Shown here piece after piece: positions 1 through 57,299 of a stretch of 64,000 nt of DNA. The position numbers were made by a program, and so were the translations under genes. The stretch covers positions 13,032,768 to 13,096,767 of the forward strand of contig NC_061076.1 of the NCBI RefSeq assembly GCF_021917145.1, given 5' to 3'. The notes under the pieces were generated by a model. It did no database searches. It was not told the origin of the DNA and worked only from the letters and a program-made list of their open reading frames with translations. The stretch is from Hypomesus transpacificus. Taxonomy: Eukaryota. Numbering within the stretch: position 1 is the stretch's first letter; every line of letters starts with the position of its first letter.

Positions 1-174
1 GTGGAGCACCCTCTGAGTGAGTGCCAGTGGTTCCACGGTACACTGTCTCGCCTCAAGGCAGCGCAGCTGGTGCTGGCAGGGGGCACGGCTAGCCACGGTG
101 TGTTCCTGGTGCGACAGAGCGAGACACGGCGCGGTGAATACGTGCTCACCTTCAACTTCCAGGGCAAAGCCAAG
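1..174 (+). CDS. sh2b1: SH2B adaptor protein, SH2-domain exon (5' part; exon begins upstream of window)
   Basis: The frame is open from nt 1 and translates to ...[49 protein letters not shown]. This is a near-identical match to the SH2 domain of SH2B1 and, less closely, of APS and LNK. A GTGAGT donor follows directly at 175. Confidence 0.88.
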
Positions 175-884
175 GTGAGTGCAATAAAGAGTGCATGCAT
201 GGAAGGCATTTTTGTGGCGGAAAAACCTCCTCAGGTGTGTGTCGGCTTGACATCCAGCTTGCTTTTGGAAAACTATGTAGTAGATGATCAATTCTTCATA
301 CGAGTGGCAATTTCAACCCAGTGAAACCAAACATATACTATCACACATATCGCAGACAATTTAAAGAGAGGTGGGAGTACTTCTTTACTGAGTGTAAAGA
401 GAAGCCTGTGAGTCTTTGCCATGAGACCATCTCCGTTTTCAAAGAATAGGAACTAGAGAGAGGCATGAAAATATGTTGATTTGAGCCAAATCTCAAAGTG
501 ATGGAGCTTTTAAGGCAGATGAAAAAGGCCCAAAAACTGTATGCCAAATGTTTGCAACATTGAATGCACTGACAATTGACAAGCATTTGCAAGTATCTTG
601 CTAGAAATACCATGGCCAGTTTTTTAGGGTAGGATGTGGACCAAATTGTATATGAAAAGGTTGTATGGGACATGCGACAAAATAATCATAAATATATATA
701 TATACATACACCGTGTTCCAAATTATTATGCAAATTGGATTTCAGTGTCATAAACATGTCATAAACATTTATTTTGTTTTTCAATTACACTCATGGATGG
801 TATTGTGTCTCGGGGCTCTTTGGAGCACTGAAATCAATCTCAGACACCTGTGCTAATTAGTTTGCCAGGTGAGTCCAATTTAAA

Positions 885-1245
885 GGTCACATGACAGGCT
901 GTTTTTGGATGCTTTTATATAAGCCTTAGTGGTCCCCTAATACTGTATCTGAAGTCTCTTTCCCAAAATTCAACCTGGTGCATAATTACAGCCACTACGA
1001 GCAGTCCCACAATGAGCTTTCCTCAAGACGTTCTGTTTCTGTGTCTGTAGCTTTAAATGCTCATGAGGAGGAGAGAGGCGGCACCATGCGCTAAGGTTTA
1101 CAGTGGATGTATCGCATGGCTCATAGCCCTGTTGCTGTAAGATGCCTAAAATTTGCAGTTTCTCATCTGATCACCCTGGTTTGCAGAGGTGCACACTCAT
1201 AGTAATTTCAATGAGGGGAAAGGCGGATATCGCGCGCGCCATAAC
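885..1245 (+). repeat. Unclassified interspersed repeat of about 360 bp (second copy at 39480-39850)
   Basis: The stretches 885-1245 and 39485-39850 align at about 85% identity in the same orientation (AAGGTCACA(T/C)GACA.GC.GTTTTTGGATGCTT...TGTAGCTTTAAATGCT...). Confidence 0.7.
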
Positions 1246-2649
1246 ACCAACTGCAGAATGGTTATCCAAATAACAAAGAAGTGTACAACACTCGCCGTTA
1301 CAGCATGTGTATTCACACAAATACTTGATGCTAGCTACCTTTACATGAGCGACAGTAACTCAGCTGTTAGCTGCAGAGCTAATGTTGCAGCCACATTCTA
1401 AGAGTAGGAAGCTCGGTAACCATAAAGCAACACAATTATATAGCGTTAGTTAATTTACTTGTCCGAGGTTTGTAGCTGGACCAAGGAAAGTTAGTACTGA
1501 TCCAGAATTTTTTTTCAGCTAGGGCAACTTTGTGTTAGCTCAAGTTGAGGAAACAGTCGTGGCTGAAATGTTTGGCGCAGACATACAAAACTTTGGGAAG
1601 TTGTGTCGGCGCATTTCCAGAGAAAATAAAATTGAGACACTGGGTCTTCAGAGGCTCGGATGAAGGAACTGTAAAATACTTTTGTTTTCCTTTGTACATC
1701 CAAACTGAGCAAATGTAATGCTTTGTTCGTTTGCAAACCATGATGTCTCTCAAGGATAAAAACACTTGCATGGTCGTAGCTCAGTTTCTGTCAAAGCAGA
1801 GAGAGGGGAGGTGACGTCACAATAGGGGATACGTTACAATAGGGGATTTTCAAAACCGAGTTTTTGAGCTTTCATTTTCTCAAAGGCGGAGAAAATACCC
1901 AGGACTTGGTTTACACCTATGCAAATTTCTAGCCACTGGGGGACCAAAGGCAGGCTAGGGGAACTCATTTGAATGTTAAATAACCTGCTAAAGTGAAGTT
2001 TTCATGTTATGTGACCTTAAAAGAAAACTACTAAAGATGGACGTTCCACATTATTAAGCAGGCCACAAGTTTCAAGCAATATGGGAAAGAAAAAAGATCC
2101 CTCTGCTGCCGAAAGTGTCAAATGCATTGGACAAGGTATGAAAACATTCAATTTAATTTAGGGACATGATTTAGTGTACATTTATGAACATTAAATGTAA
2201 ATGCACCCAATTATAGCCAAAAGGCTAGTTTCCGTTGGCAGTCCCCCTGCCAGAGTGAAACAAAGGCTATTCAAACCAAAAAAAGGCGTTAAGTTAAAAT
2301 ATATCAAACATAAAGTCCCGATACACAAGCCCCACTTGGTCCTTAACCATGGGTAGAAGGGAAAGAACAATGGGTATACAAACAAGTGGTAAAAAAGAAT
2401 TCTACTGCAAAAAAATAATTCTACTGTTTACCCACTAATGATCAAATGTTTTGTTAATTATCAACCATGTTTTGAGATTTCTTTTAAAGCAGTTGAATGA
2501 AGTTGATTCTGTAATGTTTTGTGGGAGATGGTTTCATTCCCGGGCTGACCTAACTGAGAAAACTGACTGTCCAAATACACTTAAAAAAAGGGTTGCCTCT
2601 TGAGTAGCACTGGTTTATGCTGTTCTAAACTTGACTAGGCTGCATGGTG

Positions 2650-4321: not shown

Positions 4322-4496
4322 CACCTGCGACTGTCCCTGAATGAGGACGGCCAGTGTCGTGTGCAGCACCTGTGGTTCCAGTCCATTTTTGACATGCTGG
4401 AGCACTTCCGCGTACACCCCATCCCCCTGGAGTCTGGGGGTGCCTCCGACGTCACACTCATCAGCTTTGTGGGTGCCACCGCTGTCAGGCAACCAG
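4322..4496 (+). CDS. sh2b1: SH2B adaptor protein, second SH2-domain exon
   Basis: An acceptor (ttctttacag) sits at 4320-4321. The exon translates to [58 protein letters not shown], continuing the SH2 domain in phase from exon 1. A GTAC donor sits at 4497, and the exon ends in phase 1. Confidence 0.88.
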
Positions 4497-11517: not shown

Positions 11518-11608
11518 GCCGGGACAGGGCAGGCAGCCGGCCCACAGTCTGTGATGTCATCACCACGCGCCACCCTGACTCTCCATCAACCCCCATCTCT
11601 GACTGTGT
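11518..11608 (+). CDS. sh2b1: SH2B1 91-nt exon (frame-shifting, probably alternatively included)
   Basis: The exon has a strong acceptor (tcattctttgcag) and a GTAAGT donor. With incoming phase 1 it reads G RDRAGSRPTVCDVITTRHPDSPSTPISDCV. This pattern matches, as far as I recall it, the post-SH2 segment of mammalian SH2B1 (GREQAGSHAGVCEGDRCYPDASSTLLPFGASDCV). Its length of 91 nt changes the frame of the terminal exon. Confidence 0.7.
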
Positions 11609-12482: not shown

Positions 12483-12754
12483 ACTTGACCAGCAGACCCC
12501 GTAGCCCTCCTCAGCTTCCTCCTCCACCCCTGCCTCCCGGTCGGCCCCCACCCCCCACACCACCTCAGGAGCGAGGGAGTGACACAGAGCTAGGAGCTGG
12601 TGGAGCAGGTGTGACAACAACAGCAGTAGGAGGTGCAGGAGTAGAGGACTGGGAAGAGAGAGAGTCATCCCTCCGCCAACTGGAAGGTGTGGAGAGTGAA
12701 GAGAGGGAAGGTGGGAGGGCAAGAGCCATTGATAACCAGTACTCTTTCTTCTGA
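12483..12754 (+). CDS. sh2b1: SH2B1 terminal coding exon, with two alternative C-termini depending on inclusion of the 91-nt exon
   Basis: The acceptor is ctccctgcag, ending at 12482. If the 91-nt exon is skipped, the frame runs ...PPQLPPPPLPPGRPPPP...EEREGGRARAIDNQYSFF* with the stop at 12752-12754; this matches the SH2B1 and APS C-terminal RAI(N/E)NQYSF(V/Y) motif. If the 91-nt exon is included, the frame gives VLDQQTP* with the stop at 12502-12504. Confidence 0.78.
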
Positions 12755-15412
12755 AAAAGGAGAAAAGGAGAGAAAGCGATGGGGGTGAGATGTGATTTGC
12801 AAAAGGGAGGGTGAAGGAAATGGAGGTCATAGCCATTCATAGGCATAGATCATAGCCATTCATAACCAATATTTGTGTTTTGTTGAGAAGAGGGAAATGA
12901 GGTACTAATACTATTAAAGGCAGGTTAGGCAATGTTGTTGAGAAGCACTTTTTGTCATATTTGCTAAAATAAACTCATCAACTCAACATACCAATAGATC
13001 TAAAGGTTTGACAGTAAAATTAAATCAATCCGATATCTGTGGGCGTCGCAGGACTGTAATAAACATGACCAATCATTAAGGTCTGACCGGCACTAATTAT
13101 TGGACGGCATTGGTACATGTGTTTTGGAGAAGTGGCTTTGAAAGAAGGGATGGGACATTTTAGTTTGAATCCTTCCAAGCTCGAGCTAAAATGACTAGGT
13201 TCGCGAAACCTGCCTATCCTTTCTTTAAAACAAGCATTCTGGGAGATACAGAAAGCTGGAGAGCAGGCGTGAGAAAAAGAGAGGGAGAGCGGAGCGAGGG
13301 GGCACCTTAGAACACTAAAAAAGGTACACTAATCTTAAGCGAGAGACGCTTCTTGTCGGTACATTTCATGGTACGCTCTTTTGTAGACTTTTAAATACAT
13401 TTACGGATGATGGTAGACGGGGCTAGGCCTAAGCCAGCAGTGCATTACCTCATCTCAGTTGTGCAGAGACTGACAGTTTATTGGCCAAGAGCAGATTTCA
13501 AGTAGTGGCCAACCATATACTTTCAGAGTGGCAAAGACTAGACTAGAACAGGCAGGAAATATATACCTCAATCACACTTGTGTCAATCTTTTTCTGTCTC
13601 TTTCTCTCTCTCCACTTTCTGTTTTTCTTATATGGTTGAAAAAAGGTTGGATGGAGAGCCTATGTGTTTGAGAGAGAAAAATAGTTTATTACTGATGATG
13701 ATATTGTTATGAATAAGAATGATTATGGAAATAGTAATGGTGGTCAAAATAATAGTATTTTTTTTTTATATATATACTTTTTATTTTTATGTTTACTCCA
13801 TGTATGCCTAACACTTGATCCCCTCCCATCCATGTTATTCAGTTTAAATTTCTTTGTGCCTTTTTTATAAAGCTAAAGCCTCACTCTCAAATCTATCCTT
13901 GACCTCATGCTGTCTTTTTATCCTGGACATTTCATTTTAAAAGTGCAGAAAAAGAAGAAAAAATTATCTTAAACGTAAAAATACCCTTTTCTATTTGTGC
14001 CTTTCTGTGTCTGTCATTACCTCCTGTCAAATTCCTTCTACCTGTGCCTCGGTTTGTCGCCACAGTTGTCTTTTGTCATGTTTGCCATTCAGTCCAGTGC
14101 CTGTCCTTCTTCTGTGCATCCGCCCTTCTTAATGTCTCCCCACTCCTCCTTGCTCAGAGCCATGCATTTCACTTTTACGCACCTTTCCCTAGAAATACAT
14201 GTTGGTCCATTTCTTATTTTTGAACTATCTTTGTGTGCCTTTCTCTGTCTCTTTCTCTCGTTGCTGGGACCGTGTGTTCAGGGTGGGCAGTGTTGTCCAC
14301 CCTGTGTGGTTAGTTTCAGGTACTACATTGAATTTAATGATGATAATGATATAATATAATATACTGAAACACGTTGGACTCCTGTGCACTTTCTTTCATT
14401 GTGATACTGTTGAAATTGTTTCTGCATGCACCGGGGATGCAAAAAATTATGAAAATTATTAGTCAAAAACGAACATCATGATTAATGCATTTATGCACAT
14501 TTGATTTTGCGATTTGCCTTTTTCTTCAGGAGCTAACCGTTTTTTACACGTTGCCATAATCTTGCAAAGTAGCACATATAATATCATTTTGTATAGCCTA
14601 TCGATCATATTACAATACAAAGGATGAATATTCAAAATGGGCCAGATGAACGAGAGGGAAAGACGCATCTAATTGCTGTAGGCATGGGAATGATGTGAAC
14701 AACACCTCTGTCAAAAAAAAGTAAAAACAAGACACAGATAAGGACTCTTTATTAGGGGTGTAACAATAAATTGTGGTACGATACATTGCGGTGCAGAAAT
14801 GTAGCAATATGTTGTTCACGGATGTATATAGCAAGGGATAGGATGTAGCAATATGTTGTTGCACGGATCCACCTTACGATACAACGCAAGTATTCCTGCT
14901 GAAGACGTCTCCAAGAAGCACTGAACTAAAGAGGCTGCCATAACTAACAAGGGCCAAACCCACTAACACTACCACTCCAGCAATCCCTACTGCACTGAAC
15001 ACAGCTGTGTGCCCTCCACTCGCGGCCACAATCCCAACCTTGGAACACAGTTTCTGTTGTAACAGTGGTTTTGGAAATAGATCCTGGACGAGCCCCCATT
15101 TGTTACGAATCCCTGGAGGGCAGTAGCGGACTGGCCATCGGGAGCACCGGGAGAATTCCCGATGGGCCGGAGGGCCGCTTGCCTTATAATTTTTTTTACT
15201 ACTAATAAAAATTTCAGCAACACGGTTGGCCGGCCCCCCTTTTCCCCAGGACGGTTGGTCTAGACTATTCCAAATGAACGTCTATGCAGCCCTTAGTGCC
15301 GCTTATACAGCGACACTGACAGATCGAAAGCTAGCTAGTAGAGACAATATAAAGATGGAAAACCAGGCTAAGAAACCTAAACGTAATTACCTTATGCGAC
15401 AAACGCTTTAGT

Positions 15413-16260
15413 ATGGCTTCAAAATGTACAGTGCCCTCCACAATTATTGGCACCCCTTTAAGATGTGGTCGTGGATTTCTAAAAATTCTCCTTAAAAAAA
15501 CACACTACATAGAACCCAAATGCAAAAAAAGAGAAAAATCCAACCTTTCATTTAAGTACATTATTGGTGGTAAAAAAATAATCACACATTTAGAAAGAAA
15601 AAAAAACTTGAAATCATGTGTCCCACAATTATTGGCACCCCTGATGTTAATACTTTGTACAACCCCCTTTTGCCAAGAAGACAGCACTTAATCTCCTCCT
15701 AAAACATTTCACAATATTGGAGAACACAGAGAGAGGGCTCTTTGACCATTCTTCTTTGCACAATCTTTCTAGATCATCCAGTGTCCTGGGACCTCTCTTA
15801 TACACTCTCTACTTTAGCTCGCCCAACAGGTTTTCGATTGGGTTGAGGTCTGGGGACTGAGATGGCCATGGGAGGACCTTGAGTTTGTTACTGCTGAACC
15901 ATTTTTGTGTAGATTTTACCACGTTTTGGATCATTATCCTGCTGAAAGACCCAATGACAACCCATCTTCAGCTTTCTGGCAGAGGCCATCAGGTTTTTAT
16001 TTAAAATGTCCTGGTAGTTCAAAGCGTTTAAAAATGCCATGCACAGGTACTTTGATGCAATTCTGTGACAGTGAGCTTAGGACCTTTTTATTCTTCTCTT
16101 ACCATCCTCCTCATTGTGCGTTGTGGCAAGATAAACTTGGGACCTTTTCCAGGCATGTTTGTCACTGTTCCAGTTGTTTTTAACTTCTGAATGATTCCTC
16201 TGACTGTAGTACGGGCAAGTTAAGGCGAGTGGCTATTTTCTTGTAGCCATTGCCTGACTT
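15413..16260 (-). mobile_element. Tc1-like DNA transposon (3' part), truncated by a LINE insertion at 16261
   Basis: The terminal sequence is TACAGTGCCCTCCACAATTATTGGCACCCC, with an internal repeat of the same motif at about 15620. The minus strand encodes ...PWPSQSPDLNPIEN... (the reverse complement of 15830-15870), which is the Tc1 transposase C-terminus. Confidence 0.8.
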
Positions 16261-16990
16261 ATGAAGGTCGACACACATCTGCCTTACTTGAATGGTATGT
16301 TCTGCTGTATACCAACACGCACCAGGTTGAGCTTCAACAACGACAAGCCCTGGTTCTCAGCAGAGCTCAGAAGGTTGAGGTCAGAGAAGGAGGAAGCTTT
16401 AAGGAGTGGGGATAGAAACAGATTCAAGGAGTCGAAGAACAGGTTTAGCAAGGCGGTGAGAGATGCTAAACGACTGTACTCTGAGAAACTGAAGCGTCAG
16501 TTCTCTGCTAACGACTCTGCTTCTGTCTGGAGAGGGCTCAGGCAGATCACCAACTACAAGCCCAGAGCCCCCCACTCCACCAACGACTCCCGTCTGGCCA
16601 ATAACCTGAACAAGTTCTACAGCAGATTTGAAAGACAGTTGGACAGTCCTGAACTACCCCTTCCCATCCATGAGGCCTCACCCCTCCCCCCCTCTACAGT
16701 GACGACTCTCTCCATTCAAGAGGGTGAAGTTAACATACTTTTCGAGAGGCAGAACCCCCGCAAAGCAGCTGGGCCGGACTCTGCCTCTCCTGCCACCATC
16801 AAGCACTGCGCTGACCAGCTGTCTCCTGTGTTTACCAACATCTTTAACACCTCCCTGGAGACATGCCATGTGCCAGCCTGTCTCAAGTCCTTCACCATCA
16901 TCCCTGTGCCCAAAAAGCCAAGGCCAACAGGACTTAATGACTACAGACCCGTCGCCCTGACCTCTGTGGAAGCTAACTTAAGCTAGGTAC
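16261..16990 (+). mobile_element. Non-LTR retrotransposon internal fragment (region between endonuclease and RT; same family as 48900-51790)
   Basis: The ORF reads ...FSANDSASVWRGLRQITNYK...FERQNPRKAAGPDSASPATIKHCADQLSPVFTNIFNTSLETCHVPACLKSFTIIPVPKKPRPTGLNDYRPVALTS. This is the diagnostic teleost LINE ORF2 linker/RT N-terminus. Confidence 0.8.
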
Positions 16991-17545
16991 CGTTTCGGAA
17001 AAATAACTTGTGTTGTGGGGACCGTTGGAAATATTTAGAACTCACGCAGCTAAATGTTGAAGTTCTGTCTTCTAATGTCATGTAAAACATCATTTTTGTT
17101 GTTCAGTGACACACAAATTAACACACAAACATAGGTACTTAACATCCAGAAGTTGAAATAAAATCCTGAAATATTGCACATTCTTAAAGTTGTTAAATAT
17201 CAGAATTTTGGGGGGGTGGGGGGTTCAAAATATCTAGATACTTATCAGGCCGGGGTTTTCAGGCACAGACGCGGACAGCAGGTCAGGTGTAACAAAAATT
17301 GTTTATTCCAATTAACAAAGGGGTACTCCACGGTAGGATGGTTTAGTCCAACAAAAGGTAATCCACAAACAAAAGTACAATCCAAAACGAAATAAGCATC
17401 CCCTTCGGAGTAGAGGCACACAACTAATAAATGCACGGAAAGCGTACTTACAACAAACTTCATGACAGAGTGAAGAGGGAAGGACACCCAGTGCTTAAAT
17501 AGGAAGTGTTGACCGCAGGTGGAGCCCAGTGTAGAAGAAGGTTAG

Positions 17546-17660: not shown

Positions 17661-17669
17661 ATGACAGTA

Positions 17670-39345: not shown

Positions 39346-40329
39346 TTTAATTTTGACTAACTCAGCGTTCCATAATATCTCGATTTACTGACATTTCCGG
39401 TATATTAACACATAATATCAATTGGTTACTGGTGTGTTGTATTATGTATATGCCTGATAATCTATTAACATTTATGTGTTACATTAAAGGTCACACGACA
39501 TGCCGTTTTTGGATGCTTATATATAGGAATTAGTGGTCCCCTAATACTTTATCTGAAGTCTCTTTCCAGAAATTCAGCCTTGGTGCAGAATTATAGCCAC
39601 TATGAGTAGTCCCACAATGAGCTTTCCTCAGAACGCGCTGTTTCTGTGTCTGTAGCTTTAAATGCTAGATGAAGAAGAGAGGCGGCACCATAAGCTTATG
39701 TTTACAGTGGATGTATTGCAATGACTCGTAGACCCGTTGCTGTAAGATACCTCGAATTTGCCCATTCTCATCTGATAACCCTGGTTTGCAGAGCTGCACA
39801 CTCAAGTCATTTCAATGTGGGGAAAGACGGATATTGCATATATATATCGCTTATTCATATCCCTTCTCCCAAGTTTGTTGGATAAAAATCTTTTAGGAGC
39901 ACATGTACTCCTTGGTGAAAACATTAGCGTATAGCCCTGACTAGGCTACAGCTGCATCCCATGTAGCAAATTTAATAGCAAATGGATGTGAGATGATCGC
40001 ATCTGAAGACATATTAGATAATACCCAATTGCTCTGAAAGTGCCAAGTCAATGAAAGGAATAGTTAGGATGAGTTCAAGACAAATCAATGTATTTATTAC
40101 ACATATGTGACGTGTATGTTACACTCAAGGTGAGTATCACAGAAGACTGGACAATGAATGCAGGAAATCAAGAGAATATATGGTTTCTCAATATGGGAGG
40201 ATACAAAACGATTAACATAGCCTTTGGCAGGCACTGAAAAAGGACACTGTATGCTAGATAGATTTTGTTTAGGTCTTTCGATAGGGCTTCTAGAAATTAC
40301 TTTGTCGCTTTGTCAGAAATATAAATATC

Positions 40330-40572
40330 AAGCATTGCACAGCCAGTCGGTAAACAAGTTAAGAACGCTTTATTGCATGCGCCCGCAAGGAGACAAAACA
40401 ACACATGCCATTGTGCTTACAAAAGGATGTTGGAACCCGGCTCTCGAAGGACCATTGTGTCAGAAATATTAATCTATCAAGCATTGCCCAGCCAGTCGGT
40501 GAACAAGTTAAGAAAGCTTTATTGCTTGCGGCCGCAAGGAGACAAAACATTACACGCCATTGTGCTTACAAG
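40330..40572. repeat. Tandem duplication, about 148 bp unit x2
   Basis: The unit CAAGCATTGC(A/C)CAGCCAGTCGGT(A/G)AACAAGTTAAGAA.GCTTTATTGC.TGCG.CCGCAAGGAGACAAAACA..ACA.GCCATTGTGCTTACAA occurs at 40330-40425 and 40478-40572. Confidence 0.75.
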
Positions 40573-40870
40573 TTTGTCTGCTAGCATGTTGTGTTGCTAG
40601 CTATTTAAACAGCCCTGCTCTTTTCAGTCATTGGCTAAGACAAAGGCATGCAAATGAACCATGGCTCTTCTTCATTGGCTCCCTTGCATAGACCTGGTGC
40701 GCGTGTGTGCGTGCGTGTTTACAACATCAACCCTGATTGAAACACAACAACAGGATCTCCTTATATCGTTAAAGCTCCTTCACAAAGGTGTCAAGCAGAT
40801 GGTCTCCAGACCTTGCACCACATCTTAGTCCTTGTCACACAGTATCTCCTTAAAATAACCAAAACCCCCC

Positions 40871-41460
40871 TCTTCTTAAGGCCGATTTATACTTCTGCGT
40901 CTCCGTTAACGGACAGACGCACGCACGGAGTCGGACGGAGTCGGACGGACTGGTTGAATTTATACTACTCCGACGGCTCTGCGTGCTGAAAGGAATTCAC
41001 TGCCAGAACAGTAGATAGCGCTGCACTGCAATGCTAGCTAGGTTATCGAAAAGTCGGAGCAAATTTACAAATGAGCCGTTTCATCAATAAAACAAGCACA
41101 TTTTCAGCAACTACACTGCCCATTTCTCGTCACATTTTAATTCAGATGCTGATTTACATGTACTGTTTAGCTGAAATAAGAGTTGTAAAAACTTACAACA
41201 ATGGCGGTCAAAGGATTCTGTTTTCTTGTTGGTCACGGCAACCCCGCCCCCACCCCTGACGCAATCGGTTCTTAATACGGACCAATCACAGCCAAGGGGT
41301 ATCCGTAAAATGACGCACGGACAGATGGATAGTCAGGAAAATCAGGAGGTGCACGCAGAGCTCTGCGAAGGGCTCGGAGAGGACACGCAGAGGGCGTTTC
41401 TTGACGGAGAGGGCGGCCCCCGTGTGCGTGTGCATAAAAACGCAGAAGTATAAATCGGCC
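40871..41460. mobile_element. MITE with 21-bp TIRs (GGCCGATTTATACTTCTGCGT)
   Basis: The left TIR at 40871-40891 and the right TIR at 41440-41460 are perfect inverse complements. A second, partial copy lies at 38115-38400. Confidence 0.65.
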
Positions 41461-42639
41461 TTTAGTCCTCAGTCCCAAGATAAGGGTCTTGTATGTTTAC
41501 CGAGAATTCAGAGTTGGGGGTAGGCCTCTCTTTGCACCAGGGAATACTGAACACAGAATCATTCTTATACAGTATAACAGTTACATCTTCAATTTTTCCA
41601 ACAGCTTCTTCTATTTTGCTCATTCAAAGTTGCATGGCATTATTCACTTTGGCAAAATTGTGATTTCTGACGTACATCAGCGACACAGGCCTTTTTCTAG
41701 TCACACCTTAGAAAAACCCAATTTATGGCTATGGAGGCATATTAAAAGAATAATAACAGTTTATCAATGATACAAGAATCATAATAAATAGATAGGCATA
41801 TTTCTCTCCCGGACATAATCAAGGGTTATGTGCTCATGAGCTTAATATTGCAAGGTATGAATCAAACATTGTTTATTATATTCAGAACATTTCAAACAGT
41901 ATAGAAATAATTAAGTAATCGCTATCTTTAATTGTTGTTAACTGATCAATGGTTTAAGGACAGACCTCTTCACATCAAAGTTGAAATGCTCCAAACAGTA
42001 ATTATAATTTGACAGTATGTTTAACAACAAAACTATCCAGCTATGCTATAGCTATACGAATAAATTAATCGGCCATGTGTAGCCTACAGAGTACAGTAGC
42101 GGCTACTGTTCTGTTGGCCGCAGCCTGTCTAAAGATCTAGAAATTGCCTCTAGAGGTGAATAGCGAATGCGAAGTGAGATGAGCGGTTACATGAGTAAAT
42201 TCAGACAAGTAACATTTTTCAAATAGGTTAAAAGAAATATTAAAGTCATTCATTGTTGTAATTACATGTTAACGTGTTAAAGTATCTTAAAATTACAAAT
42301 GGAGGCTTTGACTGCATCCCTGTTGTTATGGTTACTTATTTCAGACACTTCATACAGGCTTCTACTATGTAGCCAGCACAATAATTTAGAACAATGAACA
42401 GACAGTTTTGCTGGAACTACTTAGTAGGTGTCCATTATCACCTGATAATGGACACCCCTGCTGCCAATCAGAATCGAGTATTCACCCAGACCATGGTATA
42501 CAAGGAGTTGTGAGGCAGAGTGCTGCATCGGTCAGTCAATAACTTGTTAATACAGTTAATTAAATAGTGAATGACATGGGCGAATGTCTCTTGACAATTA
42601 GTCGATTAATCGTTCTATTAATTGTGAGATTTATCAATT

Positions 42640-44402
42640 ATTTACATTTATTCATTTAGCAGAGGCTTTTTTTCCAAAGCGACTTCCAAGAGAGAGCTTT
42701 ACAAAGTGCATAGGTCACTGATAACAACAACAAGATAGCCCCAAAAACATTGCAGGTAGCCAAAACATGAAGCAAATATTGTGAACAACCAAAATAAGGG
42801 CAAATGGAAGAACCATAAGAGCACTCTGCAAGTGTACCTGTAGAAAAGCAAGCAACAGTAAAAATAAAAATAAAAATCACAGCAAGTACAACAATCAGTT
42901 ACCACTAACCAACAAGAGCAACACGTCTCTCAATAAGAGACATTGTGATCCTGGAGGAAACATCAGGTCCAGCCAATCATTCCTAAGTACCGTTGGACTC
43001 CCGGAACAAGTGTGTCTTGAGCCTTTTCTTGAAGGCGGGGAGACAGTCAGTGTCTCTGATGGAGGTGGGGAATTGATTCCACCGTTGGGGGGCCAGACAG
43101 GAGAAGAGCTTGTGTTGGGACCAGGCGGTCTTGAGCGGTGGGACCACTAGGTGGTTGTCTGAAGAAGACCGTACATTTACATTTAGTCATTTAGCAGACG
43201 CTCTTATCCAGAGCGACTTACAGTATGTACAGGGACATTCCCCCCGAGGCAAGGAGGGTGAAGTGCCTTGCCCAAGGACACAACGTCATTTGGCACGGTG
43301 GGAAATCGATCCGGCAACCTTCTGATTACTATCCCAACTCCCTCACCGCTCAGCCATCTGACTCCGATAGGTGTCGGTTGGTGGTGTAAGGCTGCAGGAG
43401 AGACTTGATGTAGTCGGGTGCAGTCCCATTCACTGCTCGGAAGGTCAGTACCAGGGTCTTGAATCTGATGCGAGCCCTGATGGGTAGCCAGTGGAGGGAG
43501 ATGGGTAGATTGTAGACCAGGCGGGCCGCTGCGTTCTGAATCCTCTGAAGAGGGCGGGTTGCGCATGCTGGGAGACCGGCAAGCAGCGAGTTGCAGTAAT
43601 CCAACTCGGAGAGGACGAGTGCTTGGACTAGCAGCTGGGTGGAATGCTCAGACAGGTATCTCCTGATCTTCCGGATGTTGTAGAGGGTGAATCTACACGA
43701 CCGGGAGACTGCAGCAATATGGGCAGTGAGGGATAGCTCGTCATCCATGGTAACCCCAAAGTTCCTGGCAGAGGATGAAAGGGTCACCGTCGCAGATCCC
43801 ATGGTGATTGAGAGATCGTGGGAGATGGAGGGTTTGGCCGGTATGATGAGAAGTTCTGTTTTGGCGAGGTTCAGCTGGAGGTGGTGCTTGGTCATCCAGG
43901 TGGAGATATCTGTGATGCAGGCCTCAATATTAGCTGAGATCCCCGGATCGGTCGGGGGGGAACGACAGGTACAGCTGCCTGTCATCAGCGTAGCAGTGGT
44001 AGGAGAAGCCATGGGAGGTAATGATTGGTCCAAGTGAGGTGGTGTACAGAGAGAAGAGGAGGGGTCCAAGGACGGAGCCCTGTGGGACACCAGTGGAGAG
44101 CTGGCGAGGGCCTGACACTTTGCCTCCCCAGAAGACCTGGTAGGATCTTCACGACAGGTAGGATGAGATCCACTGGAGTGCAGTGCCAGTGATTCCCATC
44201 TCAGAAAGTTTGGATAGCAGGATATGATGGATAACCGTATCAAACTCTGCAGAAAGGTCCAGCAGAATGATGACGGATGACCTTGAAGCCGCTCTGGCAG
44301 ACTGGAAGGCAGTGGTGACTGACAGGAGGGCAGTCTCTGTGAAGTGGCCAGTCTTGAAGCCCGATTGGTTGGGGTCAAGCAGGTTGTTCTGAGAGAGAAC
44401 AA
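42640..44402 (-). mobile_element. L2-like LINE copy (same family as 33630-36200), 5'-truncated, carrying a SINE insertion
   Basis: The minus-strand ORF at 43350-44402 reads ...[13 protein letters not shown]...LHWLPIRARIRFKTLVLTFRAVNGTAPDYIKSLL. The element is interrupted at 43176-43375 by a tRNA-derived SINE. Confidence 0.8.
43176..43375 (-). mobile_element. tRNA-derived SINE (full length), inserted into the LINE
   Basis: Its reverse complement reads GGAGTCAGATGGCTGAGCGGTGAGGGAGTTGGGATAGTAATCAGAAGGTTGCCGGATCGATTTCCCACCG...TTGGGCAAGGCACTTCACCC...GTCGCTCTGGATAAGAGCGTCTGCTAAATGACTAAATGTAAATG. A 5'-truncated copy lies at 37300-37420 (+). Confidence 0.8.
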
Positions 44403-44483
44403 ATAATCGTTTGTTGCAGCCCTACTGTATAATCATTATAAATTCACTGGTCATGGTTAATCCTCTCTTCTTCGGCCCCCCAG

Positions 44484-44650
44484 ATGGCATCCAAGACGTT
44501 TGGAAGCAGAGGGGTAGAAGTTCAGAGTTTGGTGGATGTGTCAATCATCCGTATCCCACCCCACCACTACATCCATGTGTTGGATCAGAACACAAATATT
44601 GCTCGAGTGGAGACTGGACCGCTCACCTACATCCGCCAGGACAATGAGAG
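44484..44650 (+). CDS. mvp: Major vault protein, first coding exon (ATG at 44484)
   Basis: The exon translates to [55 protein letters not shown](R), versus the human MVP N-terminus [42 protein letters not shown]. The donor is AG|GTTAGT at 44651. A polypyrimidine tract plus CAG sits immediately 5' of the ATG, so a 5' non-coding exon probably lies upstream. Confidence 0.9.
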
Positions 44651-44994: not shown

Positions 44995-45190
44995 GGTACT
45001 GTTTTCTCCTGTGCGCATGACAATGGTCCCTCCACGGCACTACTGCGTGATCATCAACCCTGTTGCCCGCGACGACAATGGTCAGGTGCTCTTTGACCAA
45101 TCTGGACAGGCCAAACTTCGCCATGCCGATCTGGAGATCCGCCTTACCCAGGACCCTTTCCCTCTCTATCCAGGGGAAGAGATTCAACAG
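44995..45190 (+). CDS. mvp: Major vault protein exon
   Basis: The acceptor is ctctgcag, ending at 44994. The exon reads (R)[65 protein letters not shown], which matches human VLFAPMRMVTVPPRHYC...[22 protein letters not shown]. The donor is GTGCCA at 45191. Confidence 0.9.
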
Positions 45191-45880: not shown

Positions 45881-46004
45881 GACGTGACAGCACTGCAGAT
45901 TGTGTATCCAGACACCGCGCTGCGTCTACAGGCACTGCTGGACTTTGAGGAAGAAGAAGGAGAGAAGAGGGTAGCTGGAGATGAATGGCTTTTTGAAGGG
46001 CCTG
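45881..46004 (+). CDS. mvp: Major vault protein exon
   Basis: The acceptor is tctttcatag. The exon reads [41 protein letters not shown](G), which matches human [38 protein letters not shown]. The donor is GTAAGC at 46005. Confidence 0.9.
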
Positions 46005-46175: not shown

Positions 46176-46307
46176 GGACCTACATTCCCAGGAAGGAGGT
46201 GGCAGTGTTAGAGACCATCAAGGCCACAGTCATTCGGGAGAACCAAGCCATCCGCCTGCGCGCCCGCAAGGAAGGCGTGGACAGAGGAGGAGTGCGCAGG
46301 GTTACTG
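46176..46307 (+). CDS. mvp: Major vault protein exon
   Basis: The acceptor is ttctatcag. The exon reads (G)[43 protein letters not shown](G), which matches human [32 protein letters not shown]. The donor is GTGAGA at 46308. Confidence 0.9.
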
Positions 46308-48899: not shown

Positions 48900-51790
48900 A
48901 CTTTTCTTTCTTCTGAAGTTGTTTTTGTTTCGTTTGTTGTTGTTTTCTTTTATATTTTGTTAAGAGATGGCCAAGCAATGGACCGTTACCTTTTGTTTTT
49001 TTTTTTGGTGTCTTTTCTGTTGTCTTTTCTGTTACTTTTTTCCCCTTCTTGTAACGGAGAGCAAAGCACAGTGGATTGGTGCCTTTGTTATTTGCACGAT
49101 CAGCTGATTGCGCTGAGTAAACCTTTACTACTGCCCGGAGCAAAGCCTAAAATCCCCAAAGAACTTCAGAGAAGGTGTTGGGGTTGCAGAACTGGAGCTA
49201 AGCTGAAGGCGAAGAGGAGGAAACACAAGCCATCGGTACCGGCGATTTTAATGGGGAATGTGAGGTCTTTGGTTCGGTCGGACAGGGACGTCATACAGAG
49301 CGGTAAGAAGGAAGGTGGAGGGATTGCTGTCTATGTGAACGAGAGGTGGTGCAATTCCGACCATGTGTGTGTGAAGGAATGTTTCTGTTGCTCGGACTAC
49401 ATATTTTAGCTAATATAACTTATAATATAGAAGTTCAATACTTCTAGCCGTGGGGATGCATCCGTATTACTTGCCAAGGGAATTCTCATCCGCCATTGTC
49501 ATCGCTGTGTACGTTCCTCCATCAGCTGACGCTGAGGCAGCAGTGGACATCATCCACTCCACTGTGTCCAAACCGCAGACTCAGTATCCCGATGCATTTT
49601 TGGCAGTTACTGGAGACCTTAACCACACCACTCTGGATAAAGTACTGCCAACTCTACACCAGTATGTGAACTGCCCCACATGGAACAATAAAACCCTGGA
49701 TCTCCTGTATGCTAATGTCACAGATGCATACAGTGCTACTGCCTTTCCCCCCCTTGGTAGGTCGAATCACAACCTGGTCCTGCTGACTCCCAAGTATGTT
49801 CCTCTGGTGCAGAGGCAGCCTGTGACCACCAGGACGGTGAGGAGGTGGACACAGGAGGCTAATGATGCACTGCAGGACTGCTTTGAGTCCACAGTATGGT
49901 ATGCGCTGTGTGGACCACATGGGGAGGACAACAACAGCATGACGGACTGTATCACAGAATATATACGAAATTCTGTAAACACCACTGTACCATCCCGGAC
50001 TGTTCACTACTTCCCCAATAACAAGCCCCAGTAACAATCACCAGTGACCTGAAAGTGCTTCTTAATAAGACGAAAGCAGCTTTCAGGTCTAGGGACAGGG
50101 AGGAGCTAAGGAGAGTTCAGCGCAACCTGAAGGTGAAGCTCAGGGAGTGTAAAGACTCCTATAGGAGGAAGCTGGAGGCAAAACTCCAGAAGAACAATTT
50201 GAGGGAGGTGTGGGCCGGCATGAAGGAGATCACAGGCTTCAAGGGGAGAGCGAGACAACCAGGTGGCTCCCTGGATAGGGCCAATGAGCTGAACTGTTTC
50301 TCCAACAGGTTTAGCTCACAGCCCTCATCTGTTTCCTCCACACACCACACCTCCCAAACACCTCCGCTGCCTTCCCCCCTGGTGAGCTGCATGGACAGAG
50401 AGCCCTCTACATCAAAGGGCTCTTCCACCACTGACGCCATGACCCCCCTCCCCCCCACTCTGTGACGACTGGCCAGGTTCGGAGACAGCTGGAGAGACTC
50501 CACCAGCGCAAGGCTGCAGGATCTGACGGCACCAGCCCCAGGGTACTGAAGACCTGCGCCGCCCAGCTGGCTGAGGTCCTGCAACACCTCTTTAACCTGA
50601 CCCTGAAGCAGGAGGAGGTCCCAGTGCTGTGGAAGACGTTGTGCCTGGTACCAGTTCCTCCATCTGGCCTCAAGGACTACCGACTGGTTGCCCTTACGTC
50701 GCATGTGATGAAGGTGCTGGAGAGGCTGGTCTTGGCCCACCTCAGGCCGCTGGTGAGATCTTCCCTGGACCCGCTGCAATTTGTATACCAGCCTCATGTG
50801 GGAGTGGACAATGCCCTCATCTACCTGCTGCAACTAGCTCAGTTGCACCTTGATGGAACCAGTGGCTCTGTGAGAATCACTTTCTTTGATTTTTCGAGTC
50901 CATTTAATACCATCCAACAACTGCTGCTGAGTGAGAAGCTGCGGGTGGAGGGGGTGGATACGTCCACTCTCTCCTGGATCACTGACTACCTCACAGGCAG
51001 ACCACAGTTTGTCCGACTAGGCAGTGTGCTGTCTGATACGGTGGTCAGTGGTACTGGAGCTCCACAGGGAACTGTTCTGTCTCTCTTTCTGTTCACCTTA
51101 TACACCACTGACTTCCAGTATAACTCAAGAGTCCTGCCATCTGCAGAAGTTTTCGTATGACTGTGCAGTGGTTGGGTGTTTAAGGGATTGACGGGAGGAG
51201 GAGTACAGGAAAGTAGTGGAGGACCTTGTGGAGTGGGCGGGTAGAAACCACCTGCTCCTGAACGTGGTCAAGACCAGAGAGATGGTGGTTGACTTCAGGA
51301 GGAAGACGACGGCTCCACAACCATTGAGAGTTCTGGGAGAGGATGTGGAGTTGGTTAAGGAGTACAAGTACCTGGGTGTGTCCATCGACAACAGACTGAA
51401 CTGGAAAACCAACATCAATGCTGTCTACAAGAAGGGGATGAGTCGACTCTTTTTCTTGAGGAAACTTCGATCATTTAACGTGTGCAGCAAGATGTTGGAG
51501 ATGTTCTACCAGGCTGTTGTGGCCAGTGCACTGTACATCGCTGTGGTCTGCTGGGGGAGCAGTATTGGAGCTGGAGACACCAGCCGACTTAACAAACTTA
51601 TTAGGAAGGCTGGCTCCATCATTGGCTGCAAACTGGACAGTCTGGAAAAGGTGGTGGAGAGAAGGACACTGAAGAAACTATTATCCATTTTGGATAATCC
51701 AGACCACCCTCTCCACCACCTACTGCAGGGACAGCGGAGCACGTTCTCCAATAGACTCCTTCAGCTACGCTGTAGGCGTTACAACTAACC
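48900..51790 (+). mobile_element. Near-full-length teleost non-LTR retrotransposon (endonuclease plus RT), with a frameshifted ORF2, inside mvp intron 4
   Basis: Successive + ORFs read ...KHKPSVPAILMGNVRSLVRSDRDVIQSGKKEGGGIAVYVNERWC (endonuclease N-terminus), MGMHPYYLPREFSSAIVIAVYVPPSADAEAAV...AVTGDLNHTTL...GRSNHNLVLL (endonuclease), ...QRKAAGSDGTSPRVLKTCAAQLAEVLQHLFNLTL...DYRLVALTS...FFDFSSPFNTI...GAPQGTVLSLFLFTLYTTD (RT), and ...LLNVVKTREMVVDFRRK...RLFFLRKLRSFNV... (C-terminus). Confidence 0.88.
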
Positions 51791-52320
51791 AACAAGAGCA
51801 ACAAATCTCTCAATAAGAGTTGTTGTGATCCTGGAGGAAACATCAGGTCCAGCCAATCATTCCTAAGTACCGTTGGACTCCCGGAACATGTGTGTCTTGA
51901 GCCTTTACTTGAAGGTGGGGAGACAGTCAGTGTCTCTGATGGAGGTGGGGAATTGATTCCACCATTGGGGGGCCAGACAGGAGAAGAGCTTGTGTTGGGA
52001 CCGGGCACTCTTGAGCGGTGGGACCACCAAACGGTTGTCAGAAGAAGACCGTAGGTGGCGGGTGGGGGTGTAAGGCTGGAGCATGGACTTGATGTAGACG
52101 GGTGCAGTCCCGTTCACCGCTCGGAAGGTCAGTACCAGGGTCTTGAATCTGATACGGGCCGTGATGGGAAGCCAGTGGAGGGAGATGAGGATGAGGATGA
52201 GGGTTGATTGAAGACCAGGCGGGCTGCCGCGTTCTGAATCCTCTGGAGAAGGCTGCATGCTGGGAGACTGGAGAGCAGAAAGTTGCAGTAGTCCAACTTT
52301 GACTTTGAGGAGCTTACAAC
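51790..52320 (-). mobile_element. L2-like LINE 3' fragment (third copy of the 33630-36200 family)
   Basis: The fragment is 90% or more identical to 33965-34450 and 42905-43560. The minus-strand ORF reads LISLHWLPITARIRFKTLVLTFRAVNGTAPVYIKSMLQPYTPTRHLRSS... Confidence 0.8.
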
Positions 52321-54146: not shown

Positions 54147-54241
54147 GTGAGGAGTGGCAGGTGAGCAAGGTGGGAGCTTATCTACCTGGGGTTCATGAGG
54201 AGGTCCTGGACATTGTCAATGCTTTCATCCTCACTGACAAG
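54147..54241 (+). CDS. mvp: Major vault protein exon
   Basis: The acceptor is ttttccccag. The exon reads (G)[31 protein letters not shown], which matches human [32 protein letters not shown]. The donor is GTAATC at 54242. Confidence 0.9.
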
Positions 54242-54709: not shown

Positions 54710-54946
54710 AAAGCGCTGCATGTGCGTGCACTTCGCGCCTTCAGGGATGCGGTTGGTCGAGACCGACGCACAGGGGAGGAGTGGTTGGTGACCATGGCAG
54801 ACCGGGAGGCACACATTCCCTCTGTGGCTGAGGAGGTAGTAGGTGTGGTTGGCGTGACCACTCTGAGCAGTAGACAGTACTGTGTAATCCTTGACCCAGT
54901 CGGACCAGATGGCAAGCCCCAACTGGGGCAGAAGAGGGTTGTCAAG
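54710..54946 (+). CDS. mvp: Major vault protein exon
   Basis: The acceptor is gcctctcag. The exon reads [79 protein letters not shown], which matches human [79 protein letters not shown]. The donor is GTGAGA at 54947. Confidence 0.92.
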
Positions 54947-55066
54947 GTGAGACCTTGTGCCCCTCTTCTCAAGACAAGAAGGAACCAAACCGACTATAAA
55001 GACAGACATTTATTGTGCGACACCCATCTTCTCATCTTTTTTGCATTCTCTCTTCCTTTGTCTCAG

Positions 55067-55195
55067 GGTGAACGCTCCTTCTTCCTGCAGCCAGGGGAGC
55101 ATCTGGAGACAGGCATCCAGGACATCTATGTGCTCTCAGAGGAGGAGGGGCTGGTGTTAAGGGCTGTGGAGGCCTTCAATGACACTGAGAAGGTG
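55067..55195 (+). CDS. mvp: Major vault protein exon (3' boundary uncertain: donor after 55192 or about 55198)
   Basis: The acceptor is cctttgtctcag. The exon reads [44 protein letters not shown], which matches human [46 protein letters not shown]. The only GT near the expected boundary is GTGAAG at 55193. I did not find the downstream mvp exons in 55.3-64 kb. Confidence 0.75.
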
Positions 55196-57299
55196 AAGAG
55201 CGGAGGGGTCTTTTTTTGGTGTGTTGTTGGGTGGTGGTTCTCAACTGGTCTAACCTCAGGACCCACATTTGTCCTTGTTCATTAACCTGTTCTGGAGACT
55301 GTTAAATGTGCCTAAAAACGCCTAAACAGCATGCCCAAAGTAAATTGAAAGCTGTTCTTGAACCATTTGGAGTACATGCATGTAAATGGACTCTTTTGAA
55401 AGCTGACACTCTGAAGTTATGTTCCTTGTTGTCAGGACCCCTGTCAGTCCTACTGGTGTTGAGTAATAGAAGCTTGAACACAAGGAAAGTGAAAGTTTCT
55501 ATTTCCGCCTGGATTTTGTTTTGAAAACAGAGGCCTGAAGAGGCCTAGAGGTGGTAGGTATTAGCTGGAAGACAGAATTGGACCACAGGTTGAAGCCTTA
55601 CCCAATTCAGATCAAAAGTCAAACATAATACCACAATATATTCATATTTGACACATGTTTTTATTAGAGTACATCCAGGCGTTTTCTAAAAGGGCCATTT
55701 GGAGACTCCAGAATGACCATTCTAACCAAGGTCAAATTCTTAGGATAAAAAGGTATAATTGTTATCTCTAATGAAAGGTGGTCCTTAGAACTATCATATA
55801 TAACAGCTAAATCCCTCATTAGTATTACTGAAACACAAAAACTGAAGCATGAACACATTGGAGTGATTTATCTGATTCCCAGGATTGGCACACAAAGAAC
55901 ACTGACATATTGCGCAATCGACTTTTATTTTGAAGGCTCCACAAAACCTGGCATATGGGGTATCGCCATTTACAGCTAGCGCTAAGCTACAAGGATAATT
56001 AGCTCTTTTCAGAGGCAATCCAAGCCAGTTAGAAAAAATCGTGTAGAGGGGGCGGGGGGGGGGTGGGCGGGGGGCGGGCTGGACGCACAGACCTAGTTGG
56101 CTTTAGAGGACTGTCACCGGGGCATGGAAGCTCCTATTGGCTAAACCAAGGTGTCTATCAACAGGTCAGAGTGTAGCGGCCATTTTAAGATTATCCCCGT
56201 GTTTCTACTTGACCCAGATCTCATGCTATGAGCTAAAGTGCGTTGAGAGACAGAATTCTTTTTTTTTACAAAGTAACAATGAAGCAACAAGATCGTGGCT
56301 ATGTGTGGATATAATTCTTTGTTTGGACAACTACTCGACATGGTTTGATACTTAGGACCCTTGGGAATGTAAGCAGATGAGGTTTTGATGAGTTGTGTGC
56401 ATACCTGGACATTCCTAAGTAATCGAAGGTAAGTACAACTTTTTTCTCTGGCATTGTTGAATGAACGGTCACCGGACAAAGACGTTGACGCTACTTTCTG
56501 TTGCAAGTTGAGCTTGAATTGGTTTATTTTAATGGAAGCACAAGAATCGTAGCTTTCCAACGATGTATAACATGTGTACTAGTCGAAAAAAATTATTTAT
56601 GATTTTTAATGCGTAATAACTGGGGGAGGAGGGGGCAGTGTTTCGGGCCCACGGGCCCGAAACACTGCCCCTAAACAAACAGCGCTGCAGTTTTGATTGA
56701 TACTTTGACATTTGTGTTCTAGAATGCGAGCAGCATGGTGTGAGCCTACACACTTTTCAAAATAAAAGCACACCATTGGAATTTCGGTAATTTATAAAAA
56801 CAAAAGTTAGACTTTTTGACGGAGCCTCTCCACACCACCTTGCATGGTCGTAGGGAATGTACCATAGAGTCCAGTAGAGATAAGACTTAGAATGAAAGAG
56901 TATAAAAAATGCAAAAATGCTCTTCAACGTAGGTTGCAGCCCGTGGACATAGAGACAAAACACACACACAAGCATAGACACATTGAACTGACATGAGTCT
57001 GCATCGATGACAGACATAATGTGGATGGCTCACTCTCATGCAGTTCCCCAACTGAAGTGTGCCCTCCTTTTATAGACTCCACCCCTGATAAACCACACCT
57101 ACTGACTGAACTACAGTACTACACATAATTTAATATTTATGCGCAACTCTTGCTGCCATAAAAAAAACAGTAGGTACACAATAAATACTATTCACAAGTA
57201 ATAAATACTATTTACACTCGATTACAGTTTTGTAAACACCTCATGCCATAACAAAGCATACACAGATTAAAAAAAATTGTATCTGAAATTGTCAGTGAA

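Follow-up and report, generated by a model that had tools for sequence, protein, structure and literature searches.

Tandem arrangement of sh2b1 and mvp across a repeat-rich spacer in the smelt Hypomesus transpacificus, most likely a lineage-derived adjacency

Results

The 3' end of sh2b1

The window analysed here, a 64,000-nucleotide stretch of the Hypomesus transpacificus genome, opens inside sh2b1, whose last four coding exons lie on the + strand within positions 1-12754. The features assigned to this gene are as follows.

1..174, + strand: coding exon, first half of the SH2 domain; 5' end cut by the window start, donor GTGAGT at 175
4322..4496, + strand: coding exon, second half of the SH2 domain, bounded by AG and GT splice sites
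11518..11608, + strand: alternatively spliced 91-nt exon encoding RDRAGSRPTVCDVITTRHPDSPSTPISDC, placed by matches to annotated SH2B1
12483..12754, + strand: last coding exon, read into the alpha-type tail RARAIDNQYSFF and TGA (12752-12754) when the 91-nt exon is skipped
12755..14556, + strand: putative 3'UTR block, 90-99% identical to Osmerus mordax

The first of these exons corresponds to residues 732-789 of O. mordax SH2B1 (100% identity; Pfam SH2 domain; best PDB match SH2B1), and identity to the O. mordax protein is likewise 100% over the last 153 amino acids. The collinear O. mordax product (884 aa) carries both Phe_ZIP and SH2 domains, the window starting downstream of the Phe-ZIP and PH exons. 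A better match to sh2b2 or sh2b3 had been named beforehand as the outcome that would overturn the assignment. When compared with solved structures, the SH2 exons scored 211 bits against SH2B1, 184 against APS/SH2B2 and 146 against SH2B3; more than 100 teleost proteins named SH2B1 matched the smelt sequence at 97-100%, versus 71-76% for those named SH2B2. By sequence similarity, then, the gene is a true SH2B1 orthologue, nearer to SH2B1 than to either paralogue.

The TGA at 12752-12754, where the initial annotation had set the last stop codon of the gene, closes a tail (...RARAIDNQYSFF) that matches Denticeps SH2B1 isoform X1 and other teleost isoforms. With the 91-nt exon included, the last exon is read in another frame and ends in ...VLDQQTP at a TAG stop (12502-12504). 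This exon matches the annotated SH2B1 of O. mordax (100%), Esox and Nematolebias, and is conserved at the DNA level in four loci of other fish, these three genera among them. The gene thus displays the alternative C-terminus typical of SH2B1, with one tail ending in the conserved NQYSF motif and both tails matching annotated teleost isoforms.

Beyond the stop codon, an element at 14294-14371 is kept as far as pike (Esox) and Xiphophorus, and a Xiphophorus gene model reads through the equivalent of the block. A canonical poly(A) signal 3' of the element was found neither in the window nor in O. mordax; in pike, an AATAAA lies 64 nt past it. The conserved 3'UTR of sh2b1 would measure 1.6 kb or more.

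The 5' half of mvp

The second gene, also on the + strand, is mvp. Its ATG lies at 44484, as initially annotated, and seven canonical coding exons extend from there to 55192. The second to sixth were placed by spliced reconstruction and tblastn, the first and seventh by spliced reconstruction.

44484..44650, + strand: first coding exon, the ATG standing immediately 3' of ...cttcggccccccag
44995..45190, + strand: coding exon, reconstructed with AG and GT sites
45881..46004, + strand: coding exon
46176..46307, + strand: coding exon
48900..52300, + strand: LINE insertion in the 7.8-kb intron, with reverse transcriptase ORFs at 49426-51785
54147..54241, + strand: coding exon
54710..54946, + strand: coding exon
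55067..55192, + strand: seventh coding exon, the last in the window

Together the seven exons form 359 uninterrupted codons, ending in phase 0, with every splice site canonical. The spliced N-terminus (359 aa) aligned with residues 6-342 of the major vault protein in PDB at E = 2.4e-170, and Pfam recognised Vault (5.6e-56, four stretches) and Vault_2 (1e-37), indicating that the vault repeat array is present. Compared with the O. mordax contig, identity is 98% in protein and roughly 91-93% in DNA. No further MVP match was found from 55192 up to 64000, placing the next mvp exon beyond the end of the window. The intronic LINE gave a Pfam RVT_1 match (2.4e-13) and a LINE-tail (ALKBH8_N) match.

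The acceptor just 5' of the ATG is also found in O. mordax, Champsocephalus esox, Poecilia latipinna and herring. Because the ATG directly follows a 3' splice site, an upstream non-coding exon is implied; the exon at 44484..44650 is therefore probably mvp exon 2, with exon 1 further upstream. Comparison of the window with the DNA upstream of mvp in C. esox, P. latipinna and herring revealed no conservation attributable to an mvp promoter or exon 1.

The spacer is a mosaic of interspersed repeats

The two genes are arranged head-to-tail, in agreement with the shared strand reported initially, and 31,729 nt separate the sh2b1 stop from the mvp ATG. The 31.7-kb figure of the initial annotation is accordingly correct as a stop-to-ATG distance; as an intergenic length it is overstated, and the real intergenic distance should be shorter, since the stop-to-ATG span takes in the 3'UTR of sh2b1 and, probably, the first intron of mvp. 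The main features of the interval are listed here.

12755..44483, strand not assigned: spacer, an interspersed-repeat mosaic with no recognisable gene in repeat, Pfam, Rfam and tRNA scans
14557..16992, strand not assigned: transposable-element insertion absent from O. mordax at the same position
33626..36198, - strand: L2-type LINE copy whose open frame of 730 codons includes a reverse transcriptase domain (Pfam RVT_1, 1.2e-37, 34009-36198)
37351..37404, + strand: UnaL2 LINE 3' element, the tail of an L2-family LINE or SINE (Rfam RF00436, 64.9 bits; gathering score 55)
42640..44400, - strand: block of SINE-like and 5'-truncated L2 LINE sequence abutting the first coding exon of mvp, with a UnaL2 3' element at 43181-43234

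Repetition within the window accounts for 37% of the spacer, and interspersed repeats make up at least 50% once non-collinear O. mordax matches are added, bearing out its earlier description as rich in transposable elements. L2/UnaL2 LINEs, SINE-like tails, and Tc1 and hAT fragments were recognised. The LINE at 33626..36198 has relatives at 43368-44399 and in O. mordax loci, and both RF00436 matches (37351-37404 and 43181-43234) exceed the gathering score. The two hallmarks of an L2-clade (UnaL2-like) LINE, a reverse transcriptase ORF and a UnaL2 3' stem-loop, are therefore both found here.

The initial annotation had also reported no other conserved coding exon between the genes, and the searches made here led to the same result. 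Among spacer ORFs of at least 60 aa, Pfam returned RVT_1 and a LINE-tail match alone; Rfam returned the two UnaL2 3' elements and no RNA gene; a tRNA scan of the spacer was negative. In tblastx comparisons of the window with gene flanks of six other fish, matches were confined to sh2b1 and mvp exons and transposable elements, and the O. mordax annotation holds no gene in the 10 kb 3' of sh2b1. As judged from ORFs, domains and a limited cross-species comparison, which short exons or non-coding genes could escape, the gap appears to contain no gene.

A gene of such a kind (with short exons, lineage-specific, or a lncRNA), or else the non-coding exon 1 of mvp with its promoter, might nevertheless have gone unrecognised between 12.8 and 44.4 kb. 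The 3' splice site before the mvp ATG requires at least one mvp exon to fall in this interval, the exon search was one of ORFs of 60 aa or more and Pfam domains, and the spacer contains several CpG-rich patches, for example at 18.5-19.1, 27.3-27.6 and 41.2-41.5 kb. As promoters these patches were rejected, since they belong to repeat families of the window or of O. mordax; this origin, the lack of tblastx conservation with the six fish flanks, the empty O. mordax annotation and the negative Rfam and tRNA scans make an overlooked gene unlikely.

Collinearity with Osmerus mordax

Positions 1-18548 of the window are collinear with O. mordax chromosome CM076158.1 at 88-95% identity and can be traced no further. 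This collinearity and the identity of the mvp exons mark the source fish as an osmerid and a close relative of O. mordax. Within this segment, collinearity stops at 14556 and restarts at 16993, defining the insertion listed above. The inserted DNA holds two fragments, one of a Tc1-like transposase (about 15686-16076, minus strand), which matches Esox DNA, and one of a LINE ORF (16258-16983, plus strand); copies of the LINE occur elsewhere in the O. mordax locus. A second difference lies next to mvp: at this position the O. mordax mvp contig lacks the block 42640..44400, and the equivalents of 42641 and 44401 are joined directly. The sole copy of mvp retrieved from O. mordax is incomplete and lies on a 30.5-kb unplaced contig.

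The adjacency of sh2b1 and mvp is seen in one assembly, and a misjoin of repeat-rich contigs between 18.5 and 42.5 kb could in principle have created it. The loss of chromosomal collinearity at 18548, the predominance of repeats in the interval, and the placement of the partial O. mordax mvp on a small contig, suggesting a region hard to assemble, would all fit such an artefact. However, the window contains no run of N, its repeat mosaic is continuous and the sequence bears no mark of a join, while turnover of transposable elements between the two species fully accounts for the lost collinearity. We consider a misjoin very unlikely.

Gene order around sh2b1 and mvp in other fish

Gene order was compared over 10 kb on either side of each gene in five other lineages, and tandem sh2b1-mvp adjacency was found in none of the other teleosts compared; in pike and percomorphs, the distance between the two genes falls outside these 10-kb flanks. 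In pike, atxn2l lies 2.1 kb downstream of sh2b1, and in zebrafish, as a 2025 paper describes, sh2b1 flanks atxn2l on chromosome 3 (PMC12730607). In P. latipinna and C. esox, a caskin gene ends about 5 kb upstream of mvp, recognised by its Caskin1-CID and SAM domains and, in Poecilia, also by Caskin-tail. Neither atxn2l nor caskin sequence was found in the window. In Nematolebias and Mugilogobius, mvp was not found within 6-10 kb downstream of sh2b1. Herring carries both genes on one chromosome (LR535879.1), mvp on the + and sh2b1 on the - strand, convergent and about 115 kb apart.

Discussion

In human, SH2B1 and MVP both map to 16p11.2, where many genes fill the roughly 1 Mb that separates them. 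None of ATXN2L, TUFM and ATP2A1, the neighbours of human SH2B1, was found in the window. The placement of the human genes in the distal and proximal intervals, as given in the initial annotation, agrees with Loviglio et al. 2016 (PMC5508252): SH2B1 belongs to the distal BP2-BP3 interval (220 kb), and MVP lies near the telomeric edge of the proximal BP4-BP5 interval (600 kb). Low-copy repeat blocks flank the two human intervals, between which lie 650 kb; 3D contact between the intervals is seen in human and mouse (PMC5508252). The zebrafish counterparts of 16p11.2 genes form clusters on chromosomes 3 and 12, with order not conserved (PMC3484866).

The smelt locus had been described as conserving 16p11.2 synteny. 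This holds for loose linkage, both genes sharing a chromosome in herring as in human, but not for immediate adjacency, from which the arrangements in pike, zebrafish, herring and percomorphs all differ. Since sh2b1 is next to atxn2l in pike and zebrafish and mvp is next to caskin in percomorphs, and the window has neither neighbour, direct adjacency is most likely derived in the smelt lineage rather than kept from the common ancestor with human, the polarity being drawn from few taxa.

The opposite polarity would make the adjacency an ancestral microsynteny into which about 1 Mb was later inserted in the human lineage. Both smelt genes are orthologous to human 16p11.2 genes, the herring pair is separated by just 115 kb or so, and the mammalian intervals touch in 3D (PMC5508252), all of which could be so explained. 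Yet the position of atxn2l beside sh2b1 in pike and zebrafish matches the human order ATXN2L-TUFM-SH2B1, caskin lies directly 5' of mvp in two percomorphs, the herring genes are convergent rather than tandem, and mvp is missing from the 6-10 kb downstream of sh2b1 in Nematolebias and Mugilogobius. An ancestral pairing therefore seems quite improbable.

The reading that we favour, and regard as probable as a whole, is that the window holds two ordinary, independent genes in tandem, the 3' end of sh2b1, which encodes an SH2-domain adaptor, being followed about 30 kb downstream by the 5' half of mvp, which encodes the protein of the vault shell. Both would stem from an old linkage group represented by human 16p and by zebrafish chromosomes 3 and 12. 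A rearrangement in the smelt lineage would have parted sh2b1 from atxn2l and set mvp there without caskin, after which L2/UnaL2 LINEs, SINE-like elements and DNA-transposon fragments would have filled the spacer and remodelled it.

Beyond annotation the significance is small, both genes being well known and the gene order ordinary; that teleosts keep 16p11.2 orthologues linked was reported before, for zebrafish at the scale of chromosomes. What the analysis provides is exact coordinates for the 3' exons of sh2b1, among them the 91-nt exon that switches isoforms, and for coding exons 1-7 of mvp, together with evidence for the close pairing as specific to the smelt lineage and not a conserved block. 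It also carries a caution: "synteny with human" denotes here a shared linkage group, not a shared neighbourhood. If the 3D contact between the mammalian intervals goes back to an old regulatory domain common to both, the smelt rearrangement might have fused the distal orthologue (sh2b1) with the proximal one (mvp) into a natural "collapsed" form of that domain. This is a long shot; were it true, the smelt arrangement could serve to ask about shared enhancers or co-regulation of the two genes.

Set beside known arrangements, the smelt locus resembles each in part. The zebrafish clusters described by Blaker-Lee et al. 2012 likewise keep the linkage of 16p11.2 orthologues and not their order; that study deals with the proximal interval only and does not report an sh2b1-mvp adjacency (PMC3484866). 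Human 16p11.2 has the same two orthologues on one chromosome arm, whereas in smelt they stand in tandem about 30 kb apart with no gene detected between them. With respect to the percomorph caskin-mvp arrangement, the window lacks the caskin gene found about 5 kb upstream there but shares the mvp exon boundaries and the 3' splice site before the ATG. As for the sh2b1-atxn2l arrangement of pike and zebrafish, mvp follows sh2b1 in the window, and atxn2l is found neither there nor within 10 kb in O. mordax, but pike shares with the smelt gene both its 3' exon structure and the conserved 3'UTR element.

sh2b1 and its alternative C-termini

The window, with a GC content of about 42%, reads as vertebrate genomic DNA in which short exons lie between repeat-rich introns. 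Two genes were reconstructed on the + strand, the end of sh2b1 (stop at 12754) and then the beginning of mvp (ATG at 44484), the order and orientation initially annotated. Every mvp exon has AG and GT boundaries, and the seven exons join into 359 codons with no interruption.

Coding exons of sh2b1 and mvp
1-174, + strand, sh2b1 coding exon, truncated at window start; canonical splice sites
4322-4496, + strand, sh2b1 coding exon; canonical splice sites
11518-11608, + strand, sh2b1 cassette exon, 91 nt; canonical splice sites
12483-12754, + strand, sh2b1 last coding exon; canonical splice sites
44484-44650, + strand, mvp coding exon 1; spliced reconstruction
44995-45190, + strand, mvp coding exon 2; spliced reconstruction
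45881-46004, + strand, mvp coding exon 3; spliced reconstruction
46176-46307, + strand, mvp coding exon 4; spliced reconstruction
54147-54241, + strand, mvp coding exon 5; spliced reconstruction
54710-54946, + strand, mvp coding exon 6; spliced reconstruction
55067-55192, + strand, mvp coding exon 7; spliced reconstruction

The sh2b1 exons at 1-174 and 4322-4496 encode an SH2 domain (Pfam SH2) scoring 211 bits against the solved structure of SH2B1, versus 184 for APS/SH2B2 and 146 for SH2B3. The domain's top matches in a large protein collection are teleost proteins named SH2B1 (97-100% identity), those named SH2B2 in the same match list reaching 71-76%. SH2B1 is the best match among structures and teleost proteins alike; a top hit to sh2b2 or sh2b3, which would have refuted the initial annotation, did not arise. 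The translation is 100% identical to the final 153 residues of Osmerus mordax SH2B1, and window positions 1-18548 are collinear with O. mordax chromosome CM076158.1 at 88-95% identity, a stretch that takes in the 3' portion of the sh2b1 gene annotated there. These values, with those for mvp below, mark the source as a near osmerid relative of O. mordax, probably of another species.

Inclusion of the 91-nt exon makes the last exon read ...SDCVLDQQTP, with a stop at 12502-12504, as in the sh2b1 isoform annotated in O. mordax, pike (Esox) and Nematolebias. When the exon is skipped, the same sequence reads DLTSRPRSPP...RARAIDNQYSFF, with a stop at 12752-12754; this form is the one that the annotation of Denticeps and others shows. 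The proposed last stop codon at 12754 is therefore real and ends the alpha-type isoform.

Downstream of the stop, identity to O. mordax holds at 90-99% as far as 14556. A 78-nt element at 14294-14371 is kept in O. mordax and in pike (81% at the translated level), lying in the latter about 1.3 kb past the stop codon; the block that holds it is also found in a Xiphophorus gene model that runs through its 3'UTR, so that the element is probably conserved there too. From the conserved element in pike and the read-through Xiphophorus model, the sh2b1 3'UTR is predicted to extend to at least 14371, and the element may be a regulatory one. An AATAAA lies 64 nt after it in pike; in the window and in O. 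mordax the sequence beyond it has no canonical poly(A) signal.

mvp and its upstream splice site

The mvp product matches the PDB major vault protein over residues 6-342 (E=2.4e-170) and carries Pfam Vault and Vault_2 repeats. Compared with an O. mordax gene model named "major vault protein-like", which sits on an unplaced contig, the mvp exons are 98% identical as protein and roughly 91-93% as DNA. This 30.5-kb contig (JBBWVG010000237.1) bears the sole O. mordax mvp copy retrieved, a partial gene whose 387-aa model runs into an intron. Because mvp is partial and unplaced there while sh2b1 is on the chromosome, the O. mordax assembly suggests that the region is incompletely assembled in that species.

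The mvp ATG is immediately preceded by ...ctcttcttcggccccccag, a good 3' splice site, and an acceptor 0-16 nt before the ATG is also present in O. mordax, Champsocephalus esox, Poecilia latipinna and herring. From this site we infer a non-coding mvp exon upstream of 44484, an organization that human MVP shares; part of the interval between the two genes (12755-44483) would then be mvp intron 1. A search for this exon by DNA conservation with other fish found no conservation and did not locate it.

No further mvp exons were found between 55192 and 64000. The intron after the seventh coding exon exceeds 8.8 kb, versus 2.1 kb in Champsocephalus, and the intron at 46308-54146 measures 7.8 kb, versus about 0.6 kb, an excess largely due to an inserted LINE whose reverse transcriptase ORFs lie at 49426-51785. 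In Syngnathus acus (LR594593.1), positions 2720-16693 of the locus compared hold two partial mvp-like models in tandem, of 277 and 437 aa, with an ankyrin-repeat gene after them; the two models may represent a local mvp duplication or fragmented annotation.

The interval between the two genes

Repeat copies elsewhere in the window account for 37% of the interval, and once non-collinear hits in some 130 kb of O. mordax sequence are counted too, the repetitive share rises to at least 50%, a lower bound given the very small, self-made library. Among the frames, Tc1-like transposase sequence and SINE-like tails were recognized by eye. O. mordax lacks blocks 14557-16992 and 42640-44400 at the corresponding positions, which shows recent turnover of transposable elements (TEs).

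Every open frame of 60 aa or more, 153 in all over the two strands, was surveyed. When most of them, minus those overlapping LINE copies, were concatenated and scanned against Pfam, the matches were limited to RVT_1 (34009-36198, minus strand) and a LINE tail. Rfam at gathering threshold returned only two UnaL2 LINE 3' elements (37351-37404 and 43181-43234), and no tRNA genes were found in the interval. A tblastx comparison with the sh2b1 or mvp flanks of Nematolebias, Mugilogobius, Champsocephalus, Poecilia, herring, Syngnathus and pike detected only TEs inside the interval, and the O. mordax annotation has no gene within 10 kb downstream of sh2b1. So far as such sequence-based searches reach, ORFs, Pfam, Rfam, tblastx and repeat content support the initial view that the gap is TE-rich and has no conserved coding exon besides those of the two genes, though it may conceal an unrecognized gene or lncRNA.

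CpG-rich patches, considered as possible promoters, proved to be members of repeat families. Two 122-bp repeats in inverted orientation (19805-19926 and 20664-20785), 97.5% identical and about 740 bp apart, each contain 28-bp tandem sub-repeats. They are nested in a larger repeat unit and are missing from its second copy at 30741-31277; they resemble a young insertion of a MITE or DNA transposon. A further pair of long inverted repeats, each about 330 bp and 90% identical to the other (25814-26134 and 26788-27131), carries 20-bp AT-rich minisatellites. The roughly 650 bp between them is unique sequence, and the whole may be a DNA transposon bounded by long terminal inverted repeats. A BED-type zinc-finger-like frame (KFTFKRLPNGSIDETKVISVFCRCELSYYRSTSWSLKYH) occurs in three repeat copies (7959-8438, 29720-30174 and 57606-58082), the second within the interval and hAT-like frames of this type in the flanking introns. 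A hAT/Buster-like frame (62028-62222 plus 62973-63374) lies in the intron after the seventh mvp coding exon; Pfam gave no significant match on 62973-63374. These sequences are probably hAT transposon remnants.

Gene order in human and other fish

Human SH2B1 and MVP lie about 1 Mb apart. This distance and the placement of the two genes in 16p11.2's distal and proximal intervals, as initially stated, agree with the published layout: SH2B1 in the 220-kb BP2-BP3, MVP in the 600-kb BP4-BP5 close to its telomeric edge, the intervals being 650 kb apart and in 3D contact in human and mouse (Loviglio et al. 2016, PMC5508252).

The gene that begins 2.1 kb past pike sh2b1, on the same strand, carries SM-ATX and LsmAD domains (ataxin-2-like), and zebrafish sh2b1 is reported to adjoin atxn2l on chromosome 3, read as synteny conserved with human SH2B1-ATXN2L (2025, PMC12730607). 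In Poecilia latipinna and Champsocephalus esox, mvp is preceded on its own strand by a caskin gene (Caskin1-CID and SAM domains, with Caskin-tail in Poecilia) that ends about 5 kb upstream. The smelt window has no atxn2l or caskin sequence anywhere. In herring (LR535879.1), mvp (24,665,489-24,676,238, +) and sh2b1 (24,790,843-24,804,852, -) are linked but convergent, about 115 kb apart, and at least one CD225-family gene adjoins mvp.

The tandem arrangement is confirmed, and its interpretation as conserved 16p11.2 synteny is partly supported: linkage is shared with herring and human, but adjacency is not, given atxn2l in pike, caskin in two percomorphs and the convergent herring genes. With these differing neighbors, zebrafish included, the most economical account puts sh2b1 and mvp in one old linkage group and has their tandem adjacency arise in the smelt lineage, a direction drawn from few taxa for an adjacency seen in one assembly. 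Nothing here is out of the ordinary: two known genes stand either side of a spacer filled with TEs, their neighbors having changed, probably in this lineage, within a conserved linkage group, and no new mechanism or kind of element is involved. Zebrafish homologues of 16p11.2 genes form clusters on chromosomes 3 and 12 but do not keep the gene order (Blaker-Lee et al. 2012, PMC3484866), and such clustering without fixed order fits the linkage-only reading favored here.
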